Origin: a virus
Reading direction: 5' to 3' (one strand)
IMG/VR virus record: IMGVR_UViG_3300045988_156257
Span: 1-38,886 of that record
DNA: 38,886 bases
Positions 8,087 through 19,887 of this stretch are shown in pieces. The position numbers were made by a program, and so were the translations under genes. How positions within the stretch are numbered: the first letter of the stretch is position 1; every line of letters starts with the position of its first letter. Below the pieces are notes generated by a model, which saw only the letters and a list, made by a program, of their open reading frames with translations, did no database searches and was not told the DNA's origin.

Positions 8087-9100
8087 ATGTATCAACAACA
8101 GCAACCACAGGAACCAGTAAACGTTAGGGAATTAACCGACCAGGTCGCAGGACGCCTGGAGGATCTGAAAGACGAGGGACTAGCGCTGCCAACGAATTAT
8201 AGCGCTCAAAATGCACTGAAAGCAGCTTACTTACGGTTGCAAGGTGTCAAAGACCGGCAAGGACGTCCGGCACTAACCGTTTGCTCGCAATCAAGCATTG
8301 CTAACGCCTTACTTGATATGGCGATTCAAGGCCTTTCGCCGGCCAAGAATCAGTGTTACTTCATCGTTTATGGAAATGAACTGCAAATGCAGCGGTCTTA
8401 CTTTGGGACAATTGCCGCCTTGAAGCGCTTGGACAGCATTGAAGACATTGACGCCCAAGTGATCCACCAAGGGGATGAGTTCGAGATTGGGGCCGATGAA
8501 ACCGGCCACATCATTGTGACCAAGTTCAAGCCCAGTTTTGCTAACTTGGACAAGCCAATTAAGGGTGCGTTTGCCTTTATCAAGCTGACCAACGGCAGGA
8601 CTGCTTACACAGTGATGACGAAGGCTCAAATTGATGTTTCTTGGAGTCAAAGTCGAAATCGGCAAAACAAGGTTCAAGACAAGTTTAGCGATGAAATGGC
8701 CAAGCGGACGGTCATTAACCGCGCTGCCAAGATGTTTATCAACACATCTGACGATAGCGACCTATTGACAGGCTCAATTAACGCCGTTACTAAGGCGGAG
8801 TACGAAGAACCGACAGAGCCAAAGGACATAACGCAAACAGCGGCCGAAGAACAGGGGAGCACGGCTCAATTGCTGGCGGACTTTCAAGAAGCCCAGCAGG
8901 CCGAAGAGGAGGTTAAGACAAAACCAGCTCCCGTACAAGCCCCAAAACAGCCCGTAGCGAAAGAGAAACCAAAAACTAAAGAAGACCCCAAGGTACCGGC
9001 TAAAACGTCAGAGAGCGAACCAGAAGCAAAGCCAGCGAGTGAAACTGACGAACGCCAGATGTCAATTGATGATTTCTTGAAGGAGGGTCAAAATGCTTAA
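8087..9100 (+). CDS. recT: RecT-family single-strand annealing protein with long disordered C-terminal tail
   Basis: GGGAGG SD. The core (ALKAAYLRLQG..., NQCYFIVYGNELQMQRSYFG, KRTVINRAAK) is typical of RecT. A Pro/Lys/Glu-rich tail ends in MSIDDFLKEGQNA. Confidence 0.82.
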   Translation: MYQQQQPQEPVNVRELTDQVAGRLEDLKDEGLALPTNYSAQNALKAAYLRLQGVKDRQGRPALTVCSQSSIANALLDMAIQGLSPAKNQCYFIVYGNELQMQRSYFGTIAALKRLDSIEDIDAQVIHQGDEFEIGADETGHIIVTKFKPSFANLDKPIKGAFAFIKLTNGRTAYTVMTKAQIDVSWSQSRNRQNKVQDKFSDEMAKRTVINRAAKMFINTSDDSDLLTGSINAVTKAEYEEPTEPKDITQTAAEEQGSTAQLLADFQEAQQAEEEVKTKPAPVQAPKQPVAKEKPKTKEDPKVPAKTSESEPEAKPASETDERQMSIDDFLKEGQNA

Positions 9101-11964: not shown

Positions 11965-12147
11965 ATGGCAACGATTGAATTTTGGCCGGGTGACCGGGTT
12001 AGATGGCGCAAAGTTGAGTTTACGGTCACCTCCATCTGGAGCGATGGGACGGTTGATCTGTGGGACGATCATTACCAGTTAATGCAACCAGATGTTAAGG
12101 CGAGTGAGGTTGAGCGAGTGGATACAGGGAAACGAATGGTCAAATAA
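11965..12147 (+). CDS. Hypothetical small protein
   Basis: 60-aa ORF with GAGG upstream, closely following the loader gene. Confidence 0.55.
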   Translation: MATIEFWPGDRVRWRKVEFTVTSIWSDGTVDLWDDHYQLMQPDVKASEVERVDTGKRMVK

Positions 12148-12169: not shown

Positions 12170-12569
12170 GGGGTGCGATTACCAGGAATAGCGTTGGCGG
12201 AAGGCATTGTTAATTTAGTCGTTAAGTTAGAGTTGGTTAAGCTTACCATCCCCTTAGTATCAAATTTGGAACTTACGTTTGCTGTTGGGAACTTGAAATT
12301 ATTCATTGCCTTCATCTGTTTAGCTACGCCATTCATCAATTTTGTTACCGTAACGGCTTTTTATCCGTTACTTCTGTATGTTTCCATACAGTTCAGCATA
12401 TCTCTTCAACTCGGGGAGTTGCCGGGCGCTCGTGGGATATAAATCCTATGCGTTGCACCTTCAATTAAGCTTGGCTCAGGGTTGCCATATCAACTAAGAC
12501 TTAGGTTTTCCTTGAATTCACCCGGTGCTAAGTAACGTATCGCTACGCCACAGGGCAATCAACAATCAG

Positions 12570-12578
12570 ATTATACCA
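12570..12578 (-). promoter_or_regulatory. Extended -10 element TGgTATAAT on the minus strand
   Basis: The reverse complement of 12570-12578 reads TGGTATAAT. It points into the ORF-free region that ends at the minus-strand terminator at 12141-12169. Confidence 0.35.
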
Positions 12579-12614
12579 CAAAATATTGGGGTAAAGAGGA
12601 GTGAGGCAATCACC

Positions 12615-12812
12615 ATGTGGTGGGATAAAGTACAACCAATCATGATTAGACAAAATCGAAGTATCTATTGGCTAGCAAAGCAAACTGGGATCCTAGATAA
12701 CACACTTTACCAGTACAAAAACAAAGGCGTGGAACCGAGCTTCAGGAATGCTTGTAGGATTGCAGACGCATTACAGGTTAGCCTATTAGAGTTACGAGAG
12801 GACGATTATTAG
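12615..12812 (+). CDS. Small XRE-type HTH protein
   Basis: The ATG at 12615 has GAGG 8 nt upstream. The HTH is RSIYWLAKQTGILDNTLYQYKNKG...IADALQVSLLEL. The track's N-terminal extension has no SD. Confidence 0.7.
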   Translation: MWWDKVQPIMIRQNRSIYWLAKQTGILDNTLYQYKNKGVEPSFRNACRIADALQVSLLELREDDY

Positions 12813-13984: not shown

Positions 13985-14064
13985 AACTGACAAAATAAAG
14001 AGCACCCATGTAGGGCGCTCTCAAAGCAAATATCAATCCAATTATACAGCGAGGAGTGCACTTC

Positions 14065-14550
14065 ATGGGACTGTTTCCGCAAATTGATAAACAAGCAACA
14101 ATTGACAAAGTGCGTCATTTCTTTTGGGACGATGACCGATTTGAAGGGATCTGTTTGAGAGCGGGCAACTATGGCTTGCGATCGCCGCAATTAGATATTA
14201 CTGGGATCAGAGGCAGCTCAGCCTTTAACTCGACTGATGATCGGCTGGCCGACATTGCCGACTGCTTACATGCGATTTGCGCCGTTCACGAGGCCATTCA
14301 AAGTTGTCGGTATTCGTCCAGGATCATTTTGAAAGAACGTTTTTTACCGGGTTTTAGAGATCGTATGTACGTTAAAGAACTGGCGCCGAAGCTAGAACGA
14401 TACAGTGATGATGGCTATAAGGCACTAGAGGAGCGGGCCTGCCTTGATTTCGCGGATATCATTGAGCCAAAGTGTGCAGTATACCGTGTTGATCGTCAAT
14501 TAATTCCTGATTTTCACGTCTACTTCAAATCGGGGATGAATCGGGAATGA
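14065..14550 (+). CDS. ArpU-family late transcriptional regulator
   Basis: The ATG at 14065 has GAGGAG 8 nt upstream. The N-terminus MGLFPQIDKQATIDKVRHFF is typical of the ArpU family. Its position immediately before the packaging genes supports the call. Confidence 0.75.
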   Translation: MGLFPQIDKQATIDKVRHFFWDDDRFEGICLRAGNYGLRSPQLDITGIRGSSAFNSTDDRLADIADCLHAICAVHEAIQSCRYSSRIILKERFLPGFRDRMYVKELAPKLERYSDDGYKALEERACLDFADIIEPKCAVYRVDRQLIPDFHVYFKSGMNRE

Positions 14551-14714
14551 ATCGGGAATCGAACGGAGACCACACGGGGATAAAATGGCATATACTGGTA
14601 TTGTCAAAAAGAATGAGTAAGTCCCCGTTGGATTGGCACTTACTCTGGGTTCAACTCCACAGGCCTTGATTGTCCGCAATGACGTTAAACTACATATCAT
14701 TTTATTTTTACCTC

Positions 14715-14740
14715 AGCCTGGTTATTATAACCGGGCTTTT
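14715..14740 (+). terminator. Intrinsic terminator immediately upstream of the DUF4145-like gene
   Basis: AGCCTGGTTA-TTA-TAACCGGGCT 10-bp stem (one G-U pair) followed by TTTT. Confidence 0.65.
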
Positions 14741-14767
14741 GTATTATATGGGTGAGGTGAAAATAAA

Positions 14768-15343
14768 ATGGTAAAAATTGATTGTGAGGATTGGAGAAAC
14801 ACAGAACGTCTGTACCCCTATAGATATAAATGTGGATATTGTGGACAAACAGTTGGGGCAAATTATGGATATACGGTAAACCATGATGATTATGCAATTT
14901 ACTTGTGCCCGTATTGTGGGAGGCCATCTTTTATGGAGAACGGTATGATGACACCTGGATCTGCTTATGGGCAACCAATAACTAACTTGCCTGATACAGT
15001 ACAGAGTTTATATGATGAAGCACGTAATTCATATCAAGCTGGGGCATTTACGGGCGTTATTCTTATATGCCGTAAAGTTTTAGCGAATGTTGCAGTTTAC
15101 TATGGTGCTAAAGATGGTCAACAATTTGTTAAGTATGTTGATTATCTTGTTGAGAACGGTTATGTTCCAGAGAAAAGCCGAGAATGGATTGATGAGATTA
15201 GAACGGAAGGTAACAGTGCTACTCATAATCAAACGGCTAAAAATAAGAACGATGCACAACGAATTTTAGACTTTGTTCAAATGTTGCTACTAATTAATTT
15301 TAAATTTAATAGTGATTACAATAATTCAGAAAATAGTAATTAA
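14768..15343 (+). CDS. Zn-ribbon + DUF4145-like (HEPN-related) protein; candidate defence/moron gene
   Basis: GAGGTG SD 8 nt upstream. There is a four-Cys zinc ribbon (CGYCG ... CPYCG). The C-terminal helical domain (LPDTVQSLYDEARNSYQAGAFTGVILICRKVLANV...VDYLVENGYV...IDEIRTEGNSATH...AQRILDFVQMLL) fits my recollection of DUF4145. The gene is AT-rich and terminator-bracketed. Confidence 0.65.
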   Translation: MVKIDCEDWRNTERLYPYRYKCGYCGQTVGANYGYTVNHDDYAIYLCPYCGRPSFMENGMMTPGSAYGQPITNLPDTVQSLYDEARNSYQAGAFTGVILICRKVLANVAVYYGAKDGQQFVKYVDYLVENGYVPEKSREWIDEIRTEGNSATHNQTAKNKNDAQRILDFVQMLLLINFKFNSDYNNSENSN

Positions 15344-15355
15344 ATACAAAAACTA

Positions 15356-15384
15356 AGTCAGCTTAACGGCTGGCTTTTTATTTT
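15356..15384 (+). terminator. Intrinsic terminator after the DUF4145-like gene
   Basis: AGTCAGC-TTAACG-GCTGGCT stem (7 bp, one G-U pair) followed by TTTTTATTTT. Confidence 0.7.
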
Positions 15385-15403
15385 GGAAAGGGAGATGACA
15401 AAC

Positions 15404-15910
15404 ATGGCAAAGGTACACCAATGCGGTGAGATCAGATGTCATAGGATCATCCCTTTTGATCAACGATACTGTGACGTGCATGCCAAACTGCATGTGCATG
15501 ATGCCTATCATAACGTGTCGCACAAGCAACGGCTCGAGTCGTACAAGACATACAACCGTGAGCATCGTGACCAAGTAGCCAATACTTTTTATCACAGCAA
15601 GGAATGGCAGCACGTGCGTGACTACGTAACCAGTCGCGACATGTATACGTCGGGAGTGTCAGGCATCACACTGACTGATCATGATCTGATCGTGGACCAC
15701 GTGGTACCAAGACGCTTGTGCAAGGATCCGTTGGGCACCGACAACTTGTGGTGCCTGAGCAGACGTGAGCACCTTGCCAAGACAAAAATGGAAAAATATA
15801 TCGCTGACAAACCAAATGGTGATAATGTGCTGAAGCATCTAAATCGCCATAAATGGGCCGTATACATCGATCGACAGCTTGCAAGGGAAAAACATCGAGG
15901 CAGTCGCTAA
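15404..15910 (+). CDS. HNH endonuclease (packaging-associated)
   Basis: The ATG at 15404 has GGGAG 9 nt upstream. The HNH core is LIVDHVVPRRL...NLWCLSRREHLAKT. It is adjacent to a P27-type small terminase, as in HK97-like cos phages. Confidence 0.85.
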   Translation: MAKVHQCGEIRCHRIIPFDQRYCDVHAKLHVHDAYHNVSHKQRLESYKTYNREHRDQVANTFYHSKEWQHVRDYVTSRDMYTSGVSGITLTDHDLIVDHVVPRRLCKDPLGTDNLWCLSRREHLAKTKMEKYIADKPNGDNVLKHLNRHKWAVYIDRQLAREKHRGSR

Positions 15911-16041
15911 AACGTTCATACCCCCCCACAGGTACTCAGAAGAGAGCAATGTGCACATTAGCCTTCCGTTGCGGCAACGACAGTTATAAAAGTTCTCATT
16001 ATGGGGGCTGGCTGGATTACAAAAAGTAAGGAGATGACGCA
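15911..16041. other. Candidate cos / terminase recognition region
   Basis: This is the intergenic region between the HNH and terS genes. It contains a C7 tract (15921-15927), the 10-bp palindrome ATGTGCACAT (15949-15958), the 13-bp palindrome CGTTGCGGCAACG (15967-15979), and a complementary GGGGG at ~16003. Confidence 0.35.
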
Positions 16042-16569
16042 ATGCCACGCAAAATGAAGGTAACCAGAAGCCCAGACAACAAAGCCTATCAAAATCGGCG
16101 CACCGAGATGGTCGAAAAGGCGACTGAAGACCTGCAACCGTTGCAGACGTCACCACCAAACTACATGAAGGGCACGATTGCGGGCCGAGCCTGGCAGAGA
16201 ATCACGCCGATTCTGCGTCAAAGCACAATTATCAAGAATGCCGACCGCTCAACTGTGGAGGCTCTCTGCTCAGCAATCGCGCTGTATCGGCTTGGCTTTG
16301 ATGACGTGCAGGAAAACGGCATCCAAACGCCAATCTATAAGAGTGTGCAGAACAATCGCGGTGAGATTATCGACCGTGATTTTATCGGCTTTAAGAAAAA
16401 TCCGGCTGTATCTACGATGGATGCAGCGATTAGGCAGATACGCTCGCTATCGTCTGAGCTTGGGCTAACACCGACCAGTCGAGCATCCCTGCTCTCTCTC
16501 TCTGCTGACAGCGACGATGATGACGAGCCAAGCCTGGCAGACGTTTTGTCGGGTGGTGATGGCTGGTGA
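16042..16569 (+). CDS. Terminase small subunit (P27 family)
   Basis: AAGGAG SD. GRAWQRITPIL, STVEALCSAIALYR and SELGLTPTSRASL are typical of P27-family small terminases. Confidence 0.85.
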   Translation: MPRKMKVTRSPDNKAYQNRRTEMVEKATEDLQPLQTSPPNYMKGTIAGRAWQRITPILRQSTIIKNADRSTVEALCSAIALYRLGFDDVQENGIQTPIYKSVQNNRGEIIDRDFIGFKKNPAVSTMDAAIRQIRSLSSELGLTPTSRASLLSLSADSDDDDEPSLADVLSGGDGW

Positions 16570-18470
16570 TGCGCAAGTGGGATTTAACCAAAAAAGGCCA
16601 GACGGTCGAAAAAGCCTATGAAACCGAGAAAAATGCTGGCAGTTACAATGAGATCTTTAAAAAGTATCGCGATCCGGCGACCAGATATGCATTTGCCGTG
16701 CTTGAAGGCCGGCAGTTAGCCGGTAAAAAGATCAAGCTTGACGCTTTTCGGCATCTGCAGGACCTAAGACGGCAGACGGAAGACCCCGATTTTAACTATC
16801 ACTATGATTTGGACAAATGTCGGGCAATCATCAACTACTCAAAGTTGGTCCCTGACGTTAACGCCGGTAAGCCCTTGCCATTGATGATGTGGGAGCAAAA
16901 AATTCTGTGTTCAGTCATTGGCTGGCGTGATGATAATGATAAGCTCCGCTACATGCGGGCGATTTTTTCCGTTGCCCGTACCAACGGTAAGACCTATCTG
17001 GCTACGATTTTGATGTCGTTCTACTTCCTGGTGGAATCAAAGGGCCAGATGAACCATGACTATCTGTATACGGCACCGGTTACCAGTCAATCGCAAAAAG
17101 GGTTCCAATATATGCAGTCGTTTTTTACCAAGCTTTCGACTTTGCCGGCTTTTAAAAAGCTGTTTAAACAGCAAGAAATTGTTGTCCTGCATGATGTGAT
17201 CCTGTCGCGGAAGCTGCATAACCGACTGCTTCGGATGTCTTACAAGTCCGGCCAGTTTGACTCGCTCCACTGCCAGTTTGCGGTGGGCGATGAAGTCGGG
17301 GATGACCATCATATTGGCTCGATCATCGAGGGTAACGGCAAGATCACGTCTGGGCAAGGCCAAGAGCCTAATCACTGTTTTTTACAGGTTTCGACGGCCT
17401 ATCCAGACAGCAACTCGCAGTTTTACAAGGACCAACAGATGATGGAAGAAGTCATGGAGCGCGACTATGACCGCTCTTTGGACGACAACCTGTGCATGGT
17501 CTGGGAACAGGACAGCCTTGATGAAACAAATGACCCAGAGACATGGGTCAAGTCCAATCCAATTTTGGATTTGAGCCCCGAAAAGCATGATCAGTTGATG
17601 AAATCGCTGCTCTCTGAGCGTGATACCAAGATGGCGAACGGCTCTCTGCCAGAATTTCAGAACAAGTCGCTCAACATGTGGCTGCAGGTTAAGCAGAACA
17701 CGTATCTGGACCTTGATGATATCAATCGGGCAGCGGTTGATGACGCTCCGATCGACATTGACGGCCGCGAATGCTATGTGGGCTTTGACAAGTCCAATTT
17801 CAGCGATGATACGTCAATCGCCTTCGTATTCCCGTATCTGGACAACGATAAACCGCGCTACTACGTCAAACAGCATAGCTGGGTACCGCTTGCGCGGGCT
17901 CAGAACAACATCGTTTTGAAGGAAAAACAGGACGGTATCAACTATCGTGATGCCGAAAAGCGCGGTTTCTGCGATATTGCTAAAAACGACTACGGTTATA
18001 TCGATGATGGTGCGGTTTTTGAGTGGCTGATGGCCTATGTGGAAGCTCACAAGCTCAAAGTTAAATATTTCTGCTACGACAAGTGGGGCCTGTCCAAGAT
18101 GATCGGATGGATTGAGCAAAAAACCAACTGGAACACGATGCCGGTTAAAAACGTCATCCAAAATCTTAACGAACCGACCGTTGATCTGCGCAAGCAGTTC
18201 GACACGGGTACGGTCAGATACGACCACGACCCAATTATTACGTATTCGCTAAAAAATGCCGTGCTGTATGGCAACAACAACGGCGTAAAGATTGATAAGG
18301 AAAAGGCGACGACCAAGATTGACTTTGTCGATGCGCTGATTGACGCATGGTATACGGCAATGTTTCATTTTGACGATATCAGCCTGGAGAAATTCGATGC
18401 CAAAAACCCGTTCTCGGGGATGTCAAACGATGATATCAACGACTACTTTACCAATGATTTCTCATTCTGA
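16566..18470 (+). CDS. Terminase large subunit
   Basis: 634 aa. The start overlaps the terS stop (GTGATG; the ATG at 16569 is also possible). Walker-A-like ARTNGKT. Size and position are typical of the Terminase_1 family. Confidence 0.88.
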   Translation: MMRKWDLTKKGQTVEKAYETEKNAGSYNEIFKKYRDPATRYAFAVLEGRQLAGKKIKLDAFRHLQDLRRQTEDPDFNYHYDLDKCRAIINYSKLVPDVNAGKPLPLMMWEQKILCSVIGWRDDNDKLRYMRAIFSVARTNGKTYLATILMSFYFLVESKGQMNHDYLYTAPVTSQSQKGFQYMQSFFTKLSTLPAFKKLFKQQEIVVLHDVILSRKLHNRLLRMSYKSGQFDSLHCQFAVGDEVGDDHHIGSIIEGNGKITSGQGQEPNHCFLQVSTAYPDSNSQFYKDQQMMEEVMERDYDRSLDDNLCMVWEQDSLDETNDPETWVKSNPILDLSPEKHDQLMKSLLSERDTKMANGSLPEFQNKSLNMWLQVKQNTYLDLDDINRAAVDDAPIDIDGRECYVGFDKSNFSDDTSIAFVFPYLDNDKPRYYVKQHSWVPLARAQNNIVLKEKQDGINYRDAEKRGFCDIAKNDYGYIDDGAVFEWLMAYVEAHKLKVKYFCYDKWGLSKMIGWIEQKTNWNTMPVKNVIQNLNEPTVDLRKQFDTGTVRYDHDPIITYSLKNAVLYGNNNGVKIDKEKATTKIDFVDALIDAWYTAMFHFDDISLEKFDAKNPFSGMSNDDINDYFTNDFSF

Positions 18471-18484
18471 AAGGAGGAAACCGC

Positions 18485-18667
18485 ATGATTAAGACCATTT
18501 TTAAGCTGATTCTGGCAGTTGCGCTCGTAGTGCTGTGGGTTGCAGCACTCTTTGCCTTCGTTAAGTTTGGCTTTGCCGTCAACGTGGCAGTAGGTTGGCT
18601 GACGTTGTCAGTCGCACTCTATCTGGGGTCATACGTGATCTCAGCACTGATTGGCGGTGATGATTAA
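18485..18667 (+). CDS. Small membrane protein
   Basis: 60 aa with two hydrophobic helices. AAGGAGG SD. It lies between terL and the portal gene. Confidence 0.6.
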   Translation: MIKTIFKLILAVALVVLWVAALFAFVKFGFAVNVAVGWLTLSVALYLGSYVISALIGGDD

Positions 18668-19887
18668 TGTTTAATCCATTTAAAGCGGTGATCAAACGTT
18701 CGAGGATGCTTAGCTCAAACGGGTGGTCACCTTTTTTCTCGGCATCAAACGGACAGGTCGTGTCAGTCGGGCCAGTTAATGCGAGCGCGGCACTCAACAA
18801 CTCTGACGTTTTCGCGGTGGTTTATCGTCTGAGCTCAGACGTAGCAGCGTGCCAGTTTGAGGCACCAATGGTCGACTACATGCTTAATCATCCAATGGGC
18901 ACACTCATCAACGGCTACAACGTGTGGCAGTCGGTGGTTGCTCAGATGGCTCTCAACGGCAATGCCTACATGCTGATACACCGCGAAGGGACGGATGGTG
19001 TGGTAACTCGGCTTGAGCCGATTCCAGAAGAGCGCGTGACCGTTACGCTTAATGATGACGGCTCAGACGTCTTCTACACAGTCCATTTTGACGATTCCAA
19101 CCGCTCTGGCGACTATCAGGTGCCATCGGCGAACATGTTGCACTTTCGGCTGTTCGTCAACGGCCAGAGTGAGTCGCAGTATATGGGTGTCAGTCCACTG
19201 ATGAGCCTGGCCAAAGAGATTGACGTACAGGACCAATCCAATCGATTGGCTTTGAGCACGCTTAAGCATGCTCTGGCACCGACTAACATCCTGTCAATCC
19301 CACAAGGGACGCTTAATGACAAAGCTAAGGACAATATTCGTGACGAGTTTGAAAAGGCCAATTCCGGTGAAAACGCCGGCCGAGCAATCGTGCTTGATCA
19401 AGGCTTGTCACTGAGCCAATTGACGGTTAGCCCCGATATCGCTAAGCTGCTTGCCAATACTAACTTCAGCCAGGCGCAGATTGCTAAAGCTTTTTGTGTC
19501 CCGGCTGACTACCTATCAGGTAAGCAGGACGAGCAGTCAAGCATTGAACAGGTCCGCAGTCTGTATCAAAACTCGATGACGCTCTATATCAGGCCAATCG
19601 AGGACGAACTTACGAGCAAACTTGGCGTACCGGTGCACTTGGACGTCTCAACAGCGGTCGATATCGACCACCAGCAGTTGATCAGCAACATCGTCAGTCT
19701 AACCAACAGCAAGAATCCTGTCTTGTCGGGTGACGATGCACGCCAGATCCTGGTTGATCGTGGCGTACTGCCAAAACAGACGTACCAGACGGCTACGCCA
19801 GGAAATCAAGATCTAGGAGGTGATACGAGTGCCAACGACAACGGACGTACGAACGCTGACAACGGACCTGACGACACGGAGCAGTGA
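18667..19887 (+). CDS. Portal protein (HK97-type)
   Basis: 406 aa, directly after terL. The sequence pattern (NGNAYMLIHRE..., GVSPLMS, FCVPADYL) fits the Phage_portal family. Confidence 0.85.
   Translation: MFNPFKAVIKRSRMLSSNGWSPFFSASNGQVVSVGPVNASAALNNSDVFAVVYRLSSDVAACQFEAPMVDYMLNHPMGTLINGYNVWQSVVAQMALNGNAYMLIHREGTDGVVTRLEPIPEERVTVTLNDDGSDVFYTVHFDDSNRSGDYQVPSANMLHFRLFVNGQSESQYMGVSPLMSLAKEIDVQDQSNRLALSTLKHALAPTNILSIPQGTLNDKAKDNIRDEFEKANSGENAGRAIVLDQGLSLSQLTVSPDIAKLLANTNFSQAQIAKAFCVPADYLSGKQDEQSSIEQVRSLYQNSMTLYIRPIEDELTSKLGVPVHLDVSTAVDIDHQQLISNIVSLTNSKNPVLSGDDARQILVDRGVLPKQTYQTATPGNQDLGGDTSANDNGRTNADNGPDDTEQ

Follow-up and report, generated by a model that had tools for sequence, protein, structure and literature searches.

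The window considered here is the whole 38,886-nt stretch of viral DNA analyzed, positions 1 to 38,886 of the IMG/VR virus record IMGVR_UViG_3300045988_156257. It is a complete prophage-like element (integrase at 192-1322) whose tail-fiber region resembles that of Limosilactobacillus fermentum phages, and the carrier is a Limosilactobacillus-type prophage. A gene for a 191-amino-acid (aa) protein, at 14768-15343, is shown here by sequence comparison to be a distant member (~24% identity) of the RAZR/PD-T7-4 defense family. The gene is most plausibly read as encoding a RAZR-family trigger-activated HEPN RNase that would give the lysogen abortive-infection immunity, carried as exchangeable cargo whose translation would be blocked in read-through transcripts; a probability of roughly 65% is attached to this reading. 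Within it, the defense phenotype, a ring-type trigger and expression in the lysogen would be expected by analogy with RAZR. The gene had been picked out beforehand, from the letters of the DNA alone, as a possible single-gene defense system with an RNA-targeting HEPN effector (the original prediction), and a match to the PADLOC model for PD-T7-4 agrees with that proposal, the gene keeping the status of a candidate.

The open reading frame (ORF) has its own Shine-Dalgarno (SD) sequence, GAGGTG, 8 nt 5' of the ATG, as had been noted, and the impression that it is more AT-rich than its neighbors is borne out by measurement. Its GC content is 35.6% compared with 46.9% for the window, which places it in the 2nd percentile of 576-bp windows, and GC at third codon positions (GC3) is 24% compared with 47-61% in the adjoining genes. 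The predicted architecture, a four-Cys zinc ribbon combined with a DUF4145/HEPN domain, was likewise recovered. The protein contains two CxxC knuckles, C22/C25 (CGYCG) and C47/C50 (CPYCG), and residues 97-170 match DUF4145 (PF13643) in Pfam (E=1.8e-9; 38 bits, where the cutoff is 23.1). An AlphaFold2 (AF2) model (predicted local distance difference test, pLDDT, 76.8; predicted TM-score, pTM, 0.70) has an N-domain rich in beta structure and a C-domain of five helices, and Foldseek returns HEPN matches for it. The motif IRTEGNSATH corresponds to R145-x7-H153. The gene and its parts are as follows.

14768-15343, + strand: RAZR-like (PD-T7-4 family) gene, 191 aa, ATG start
14822-14938, + strand: Cys4 zinc-ribbon domain, residues 19-57, the presumed sensor; C22/C25 at nt 14831-14842, C47/C50 at nt 14906-14917
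14954-14995, + strand: linker, residues 63-76, PGSAYGQPITNLPD, followed by SLYDEAR, the motif of HEPN helix 1
14996-15292, + strand: DUF4145/HEPN helical domain, residues 77-175; R145 at 15200-15202, N149 at 15212-15214, H153 at 15224-15226

In a profile of 20 homologs, N149, H153 and the four Cys residues never vary, and conservation of R145 is 90% or more; of the linker prolines, P63 is likewise invariant and P75 reaches at least 90% conservation. The ratio of nonsynonymous to synonymous substitution rates (dN/dS) is 0.15 for the whole gene, 0.42 for the N-terminus plus zinc-finger domain (ZFD) and 0.12 for the linker plus HEPN domain, and mean pairwise identity among 41 Lactobacillaceae homologs rises from 24% in the N-terminus to 56% in the ZFD and 73% in the HEPN domain. 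The gene is under purifying selection, and its presumed sensor domain evolves faster.

PD-T7-4 was discovered by functional selection as a single-gene E. coli system (Vassallo et al., 2022, PMC9519451) and has since been renamed RAZR, for 'ring-activated zinc-finger RNase' (Zhang et al., Nature, 2026, PMC13017515). RAZR, whose source is E. coli UMB1727 (PDB 9Y9C/9Y6U), has a Cys4 zinc ribbon at its N-terminus and a DUF4145 HEPN domain at its C-terminus, with a functionally essential linker between the two; the catalytic residues are R146 and H154, and the substitutions R146A and H154A abolish defense (PMC13017515). It assembles as a 24-mer around ~170 Å rings, either the phage portal or the putative recombinase Gp77, and cleaves single-stranded RNA (ssRNA) non-specifically, leading to abortive infection, with the ZFD being the most variable region and setting specificity (PMC13017515). 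DUF4145 had been placed in the HEPN superfamily in 2013, in a survey that already named zinc-ribbon-DUF4145 fusions and their occurrence in dsDNA viruses (Anantharaman et al., 2013, PMC3710099). The original prediction's statement that this architecture has no characterized function is thus out of date (PMC9519451; PMC13017515), and the R-x7-H element, which it described as longer than the canonical HEPN motif, is the RAZR signature, corresponding to catalytic R146/H154.

Several comparisons link the 191-aa protein to this family. Its best PADLOC match is PD-T7-4 (PDLC04109; E=9.8e-10, 36.2 bits, aa 35-176), spanning profile positions 37-177 of 211, for a model with which the tool displays no curated cutoff; the allele of a sibling phage, L022, matches the same model with E=1.4e-9 over positions 11-174 of 211. 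When the 20-homolog profile is compared with PDB, the RAZR chain 9y9c_OA is the sole significant match (E=4e-7), across both domains, although a single-sequence phmmer search of PDB did not find RAZR and the family profile was required. This alignment spans residues 11-173, with RAZR D179/D180/R184 lying outside the recovered part of the chain. BLASTP gives 24% identity to RAZR over 155 aa (E=5e-10), hhalign a probability of 95.8% over 148 columns, and Foldseek, run on the full-length AF2 model, ranks 9y9c_OA first (E=4e-4, prob 1.00), ahead of the HEPN domains 1ylm, 5yep, 2q00, 3o10 and 2hsb. R145/N149/H153 align with RAZR R146/N150/H154 at identical R-x7-H spacing, and the linker motif P63...LPD-x3-S-x-Y-x-EAR aligns at the sequence level with P...MPD-x3-S-x-Y-x-EAR of RAZR. 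The HEPN effector assignment is solid, and RNase activity itself is predicted. The short ZnR-DUF4145 family as a whole is large, numbering 614 representative clusters at E<=1e-30, a figure that rises to 1606 at E<=1e-10, and a profile search of genome contigs finds it across many bacterial and archaeal phyla. The window protein is ~25% identical to RAZR^Ec-like proteins of Streptococcus Javan prophages, which are among the closest phage-borne relatives of RAZR^Ec, and its Lactobacillaceae clade is equally distant from these and from RAZR^Ec; given these low identities to both, it represents a separate clade. RAZR^Ec-like proteins annotated as hypothetical occur in eight phage records, seven of Streptococcus (32-36% identical to RAZR^Ec), including Javan263 (L331, 2950-3654), and one of Vibrio (44%). 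The Javan263 gene is located close to the repressor within the lysogeny module, in another slot and of another clade than the window gene, and plasmids of Campylobacter, Paenibacillus and haloarchaea also carry RAZR^Ec-like genes.

A number of points weigh against reading the protein as a RAZR-type ring sensor. Identity to RAZR^Ec is low (24%), and the full-length TM-score to 9y9c is just 0.34-0.36. The global root-mean-square deviation is 12.5 Å even though 174 columns align, a value that comes from global rather than per-domain superposition and is read here as reflecting a differing orientation of the domains. The ZFD alone aligns with the RAZR ZFD with an hhalign probability of 34.5% (E=4e-4). 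A ZFD-only AF2 model (pLDDT 74), beta-rich like the N-domain of the full-length model, returns from PDB insignificant SH3-like matches only and no RAZR; this structure search neither supports nor refutes equivalence of the two ZFDs. With the 20-homolog profile there is also a faint hit to 1qyp (E=0.14), the zinc ribbon used for superposition in the RAZR study (PMC13017515). DS-38, a validated single-gene zinc-finger (ZnF) plus HEPN defense protein found by DefensePredictor, reportedly aligns with PD-T7-4 in the HEPN domain only, its ZnF being different (bioRxiv 10.1101/2025.01.08.631726), and a common architecture is therefore no guarantee of a common trigger. A scan for sigma-70-type promoters, the single type covered, found none 5' of the ORF, and the SD sequence is predicted to be sequestered in the leader described below. 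Finally, a portal and RecT are made by the carrier phage itself, and a ring-sensing RNase would have to disregard them; the triggers of RAZR^Ec include a ring-forming putative recombinase (PMC13017515), and the carrier portal, as a ring, is a potential self-trigger. Because identity is 24% and the ZFD alone is not matched to RAZR, ring sensing by the 191-aa protein is put forward by analogy only.

These points bear on an alternative that is rather unlikely and still deserves attention, namely that the protein is a zinc-finger plus HEPN abortive-infection RNase whose trigger and activation are unlike those of RAZR; its zinc ribbon could sense a non-ring phage protein or a nucleic acid, it would form no ring-templated 24-mer, and it would have the effector domain alone in common with RAZR. 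The weak ZFD match, the ZFD-only fold search and the carrier's own portal and RecT rings would suit such a protein, as would the knuckle spacing (21 residues compared with 29 in RAZR^Ec), the equal distance of the clade from RAZR^Ec and its Streptococcus relatives, and the precedent of DS-38, in which a distinct ZnF is joined to HEPN. However, the window protein and RAZR are colinear through both domains, from the knuckles through the linker to the HEPN helices, the linker, critical in RAZR, is kept, and the hypervariability of the ZFD fits the logic of a RAZR sensor.

Comparisons among phages show that the gene belongs to a mobile unit. The original prediction of an independently acquired AT-rich cassette in an accessory hot-spot, located after an ArpU-like regulator and before the HNH and terminase genes, agrees both with the PHROG and Pfam matches of the neighbors and with the contents of the corresponding site in sibling phages whose large terminase subunits (TerL) are 97-99% identical. 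In one sibling (L021) the slot is empty, lacking window 14657-15341 and retaining the right terminator; in L022 it holds a 41%-identical RAZR-like gene; in L027 (2395-3931) a DUF6731 protein and a PDC-M67B-like transmembrane (TM) protein; and in L018/L028, L020, L023 and L030 further unknown genes. The slot between the ArpU-like activator and HNH/terminase is hypervariable. Conversely, an otherwise unrelated phage, L079, is homologous to the window over 14668-15389 only (96.5%, 723 bp), a unit that contains this ORF alone, and homology to L077 (98.7%) stops at 15392, where its Terminase_3 module starts. Breakpoints relative to unrelated phages fall at 15379-15392 on the right; on the left, homology to phages with the same or a different cargo begins at 14648-14693, and L021 loses homology at 14657. 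Since homology is confined to leader, ORF and right terminator, the unit has moved between phage backbones, and a roughly 0.72-kb cassette, ~14660-15390, is mobile. The traits of a moron, namely presence/absence polymorphism, atypical GC and a conserved 3' terminator, are all seen.

Homologs elsewhere repeat this pattern. The exact 191-aa protein occurs in 16 contigs, all with the same prophage, and homologs 57-80% identical lie directly 5' of the small terminase subunit in prophages whose packaging modules are unrelated, consisting of Terminase_4, TerL_ATPase and Phage_portal in one type and of Terminase_3 and an SPP1-type portal in the other; the recombinases of these prophages also vary (RecT, ERF or Sak). 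Among 39 testable loci drawn from 53 viral-contig loci with homologs, the first large ORF downstream is the large terminase in at least 18. Cultured phages of two kinds, L. gasseri KC5a (orf31) and Terrisporobacter TVCOM_ph1, have the order activator, homolog, terminase, and in both the homolog is annotated only as 'DNA binding protein'. A distant homolog (34% identity) sits in an insertion sequence (IS)-flanked unit present in two copies in an 8-Mb genome. As the flanking genes differ between homologs, 14768-15343 is a stand-alone single-gene unit. A core-phage setting of the homologs, which the original prediction had set against a role in defense, is not what was found: they are phage-borne, but they stand in a hypervariable slot that may be empty or hold AbiN or other genes.

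Two side observations concern the same junction in relatives. In phage JNU_P1 (L001) the equivalent junction, 4648-5603, is occupied by genes whose annotations read Cro/CI-family regulator and death-on-curing (Doc) family protein. In four siblings that have a different ArpU-type regulator, 56-nt matches to the Rfam tRNA model (L018 2876-2931, L022 3082-3137, L023 3189-3244 and L028 2854-2909; ~45 bits, gathering threshold 29) lie ~100 nt 5' of the cargo leader; no tRNA is present in the window.

The distribution of the gene also bears on the view that it benefits the phage directly, as a nucleic-acid-binding regulator or RNA-processing factor for lytic growth or packaging. For this one may cite the 'DNA binding protein' labels (PHROG 1305, which the 191-aa protein matches and which carries that label, together with KC5a orf31 and TVCOM_ph1), the constant position beside the packaging genes and downstream of a late activator, and the failure to detect a promoter of its own. 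However, the near-identical L021 lacks the gene and siblings have unrelated genes in its place, the cargos including AbiN, which indicates that the phage can do without it; conservation extends to the catalytic HEPN residues, the GC content is atypical, and the labels are transfers of names rather than experiments. Such a role is very improbable.

The sequence immediately upstream had been interpreted as one of two strong terminators insulating the gene. Both bracketing hairpins are followed by T-runs and are conserved, but 'terminator-insulated' is too simple a description. On the left, a terminator-like inner hairpin is present but forms part of an SD-sequestering leader common to many cargos; on the right, the terminator does bound the cassette but is also kept at the empty L021 site, and is for that reason part of the slot's right flank as well. 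Terminator-like structures number 3 in the 2.4-kb region compared with 2.0 +/- 1.4 in shuffled sequence, which is not beyond chance, so that the reality of the hairpins rests on conservation and covariation: both are conserved among phages, and the upstream one shows compensatory changes. Folding of 14551-14770 shows the upstream 'terminator' as the upper end of a more extended hairpin, which sequesters both SD and AUG. In its outer stem 14697-14714 (CAUUUUAUUUUUACCUCA) is paired to 14753-14770 (UGAGGUGAAAAUAAAAUG), and the 74-nt structure at 14697-14770 has a folding energy of -31.6 kcal/mol. Its elements are listed here from 5' to 3'.

14649-14696, + strand: 5' part of the leader and left cassette boundary, with the partial palindrome TTGATTGTCCGCAATGAC
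14697-14714, + strand: anti-SD arm CATTTTATTTTTACCTCA, 5' strand of the outer stem, pairing with 14753-14770 in the minimum-free-energy and centroid folds
14715-14737, + strand: inner terminator-like hairpin of 10 bp with a 3-nt loop, followed by a U-tract (terminator scan; -13.6 kcal/mol)
14738-14752, + strand: U-rich 3' internal loop TTTTGTATTATAT..., with the terminator U-tract and a -10-like TATTAT
14753-14770, + strand: SD (GAGGTG) and start codon, 3' strand of the outer stem

The fold is supported by covariation among 15 leaders standing before at least six different cargos; as these sequences are related, the figures are supportive and are not probabilities. Standard pairs occupy 89.9% of pair cells compared with 38-49% when the partners are slid, and eight pairs show changes on both sides, a number equaled by none of 500 shuffles. 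In the inner hairpin four of nine pairs have compensatory changes and 94% of cells are paired, while the loop at 14738-14752 is nearly invariant even where both stems differ. At least eight distinct anti-SD/SD sequence pairs occur among the phages, including AATTCACCTCA/TGAGGTGAATT, ATCACCCA/TGGGTGAT and AAATTTCACTTCA/TGAGGTGAAATTT, and the probability that the SD is unpaired is ~0 in all 15. A scan of viral contigs for the loop motif yielded 27 distinct leaders, with the SD predicted to be paired in 25; in L295, a chance terminator-only match, it is unpaired. Recurrent wobbles (columns 15-66 and 25-39) have a U in the 5' arm facing a G in the 3' arm, giving U-G pairs on the + strand only and C-A mismatches on the other, which favors a structure formed by the sense-strand RNA. 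On the same ground an attC-like DNA recombination hairpin was rejected, as these wobbles would give C-A mismatches on the opposite strand; an ordinary long terminator was rejected because the U-tract follows the inner hairpin and not the outer stem. The hairpin lies 30 nt from the ATG, TATTAT (14742-14747) has no acceptable -35, and -10/-35 candidates inspected manually in the leader were unconvincing and were dropped. Rfam recognized no known RNA family in 14300-15500, the sole match being to a sub-threshold miRNA, and a literature search found no relevant account of an ArpU/terminase hot-spot or of an SD-sequestering moron leader. Candidates for release of the SD are an internal start near TATTAT, RNase processing, and ribosome or helicase action. 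Further 5', a palindrome at 14666-14684, imperfect in the window and present as GTCATTGTCCGCAATGAC in the siblings L022, L023, L027 and L028, is conserved on the 5' side of the anti-SD arm, where it may act as an operator or form a small hairpin. JNU_P1 has at 5658-5728 a leader-like hairpin with the same inner hairpin and another anti-SD/SD pair, before a 181-aa hypothetical gene.

The cargos found behind this leader fall into 15 clusters, a sixteenth being the chance match L295. RAZR-like genes are the commonest (9 of 26 real leaders). The 189-aa cargo of L240 is an AbiN homolog (PADLOC AbiN, E=1.3e-40), the 350-aa cargos of L256 and L320 have a TIR-effector-like C-terminus (E=2.7e-5), and about 10 more families comprise small TM or coiled-coil proteins with no match. 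A terminator, mostly the same conserved hairpin, stands at the 3' end of 18 of 23 leader-cargo units, and the large terminase follows the unit in all 13 testable loci (7 Terminase_3, 6 TerL_ATPase). With one leader before at least 15 unrelated cargos, the leader belongs to the slot and not to the RAZR-like gene.

The leader gives rise to the last alternative, an addiction or type-I-like toxin that stabilizes the prophage, its mRNA being kept inert by the leader until processing or loss of a regulator. Fold-back sequestration of SD and AUG resembles type I toxin mRNAs, HEPN domains serve as toxins in HEPN-MNT systems, and the same junction in JNU_P1 carries the genes annotated as a Cro/CI-family regulator and a Doc family protein. 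This explanation is nevertheless the least probable of all and highly doubtful, as the cassette has no antitoxin ORF, Rfam is empty for 14300-15500 (no search directed at antisense RNA was made), the leader is generic to at least 15 unrelated cargos including non-toxin-like proteins, and RAZR^Ec is non-toxic without its trigger (PMC13017515).

For the preferred reading, in which the cassette encodes a RAZR-family effector, the following sequence of events may be proposed, largely by analogy. The RAZR-like protein would be made in the lysogen and be inactive alone. Upon superinfection its variable ZFD would bind a multimer that the incoming phage forms from a structural or recombination protein, the scaffold so bound in RAZR being a ~170 Å ring, portal or Erf-like protein. 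Oligomerization on this scaffold would bring HEPN dimers into an active geometry, and the R-x3-N-x3-H active site would then cleave ssRNA non-specifically, so that translation and infection stop. The leader would end read-through transcription, and in transcripts passing it the upstream arm would pair with SD and AUG.

A broader and frankly tentative reading joins these elements. The leader would be a portable insulation and translation-control module (anti-SD arm, terminator, U-rich loop, SD/AUG) marking an undescribed defense hot-spot upstream of the packaging genes in Lactobacillaceae phages and related temperate phages; it would silence toxic Abi-type cargo in lytic read-through transcripts, and the ZFDs of the RAZR-like proteins would have evolved discrimination between self and non-self rings. 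Were this true, silencing of cargo would be part of how a phage carries a ring sensor and yet makes its own portal and RecT rings, and the cargo silenced would include the RAZR-like, AbiN and TIR-like proteins and at least 10 uncharacterized small TM/coiled-coil proteins.

The remaining features of the region are given below.

8087-9100, + strand: RecT single-strand annealing protein (PF03837)
14056-14550, + strand: ArpU-like late transcriptional activator, the left neighbor (PHROG 248, E=4e-22)
15355-15384, + strand: right terminator, hairpin plus T-tract, the right cassette boundary (hairpin 15355-15376, -10.7 kcal/mol)
15383-19887, + strand: packaging module, consisting of HNH, small terminase (TerS, Terminase_4), TerL, a small ORF and the portal (18667-19887)

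The ArpU-like activator scores 34.5 bits against NCBIfam phage_arpU, below the cutoff of 43.1, and its JNU_P1 homolog is annotated as ArpU family. An 11-nt tandem repeat, AATCGGGAATG, present in 2.9 copies with 95% matches at 14528-14559, at the 3' end of this gene, occurs also in the siblings L020, L021 and L027 and may serve as a protein-binding site. The right terminator runs directly up to the HNH start (TTG 15383 or ATG 15404), which leaves no space for a promoter between them, so transcription of HNH must pass through the terminator or begin farther upstream. By analogy with JNU_P1, in which HNH lies at the right end of the genome, cos and the late promoter probably lie in the 130 nt separating HNH from terS (15911-16041).

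Elsewhere in the window, a compact group I intron match of 209 nt at 12374-12582 (- strand; RF00028, 66.5 bits against a gathering threshold of 50, model positions 1-253) is opposite in strand to all adjoining phage genes and lies in the gap between the ORFs 11965-12147 and 12525-12812, with no host gene or homing endonuclease evident. The lysogeny module contains an IS200/IS605 element (Y1 TnpA 2576-2986, TnpB 2986-4161) and an IS30-like transposase (HTH_38 + rve; 4416-5441, - strand). TnpB also matches PADLOC Cas12f models, as expected for TnpB; its interpretation as a Cas12f effector was rejected because it adjoins an IS200-type TnpA and hence belongs to an IS605-family element. Beside the integrase, 1461-2494 has the lowest GC of the window (minimum 31% near 1721); the two small ORFs that it holds on the minus strand (95 and 103 aa) match nothing in Pfam or PADLOC and are possibly more accessory cargo.

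With regard to novelty, the gene is a distant new member of a known defense family, and current PADLOC models would flag it. What is new is the SD-sequestering leader with its compensatory changes, its at least 15 cargo families and its location upstream of terminase in the testable loci. Beyond the gene itself, the value added lies in the prophage context of its clade, which poses a question of self and non-self, in the mobility of the cassette and in the conserved leader. The work also gives a testable mechanism, that of a trigger-activated HEPN RNase, to a family labeled only 'hypothetical', 'DUF4145' or 'DNA binding protein' in phages of lactic-acid bacteria. The absence of autoimmunity in RAZR was put down to a host without such rings (PMC13017515), and a RAZR homolog in a ring-building phage probes this idea: either the zinc finger separates self from non-self rings, or expression is strictly lysogenic. 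As the leader and right terminator delimit a slot with at least 15 mostly unknown families, the leader is usable as a probe for new defense genes in Gram-positive phages. Lactic-acid bacteria are industrially important, and phage resistance matters there.

Among known systems RAZR is the closest. Both are single proteins of ~200 aa, in the order Cys4 ribbon, conserved linker, DUF4145 HEPN domain; both have a catalytic R-x7-H with a central Asn at nearly equal numbering (145/149/153 compared with 146/150/154); in both, variability is greatest in the ZFD, and both are borne on mobile elements. In contrast to RAZR, to which it is 24% identical, the window protein has a shorter inter-knuckle spacer and a ZFD that alone matches weakly, and its gene lies directly upstream of the packaging genes of a Gram-positive temperate phage, shares its element with portal and RecT genes, and stands behind an SD-sequestering leader. 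Oligomerization, trigger and RNase activity are carried over from RAZR to the window protein by analogy. The protein exceeds the Pfam cutoff for DUF4145 (PF13643), a broad HEPN family whose other fusion partners include type I restriction enzymes, helicases, TIR and AbiJ-NTD, and within it represents the short zinc-ribbon subfamily. DS-38, compared here by description only, resembles it in combining a zinc finger with HEPN. AbiN has no sequence relationship to the window protein, and its effector type differs from the predicted HEPN RNase, yet the AbiN homolog of L240 occupies an equivalent slot of leader, cargo and terminator; as an AT-rich single-gene accessory cassette, the window unit resembles the Abi genes and morons of lactic-acid bacteria.

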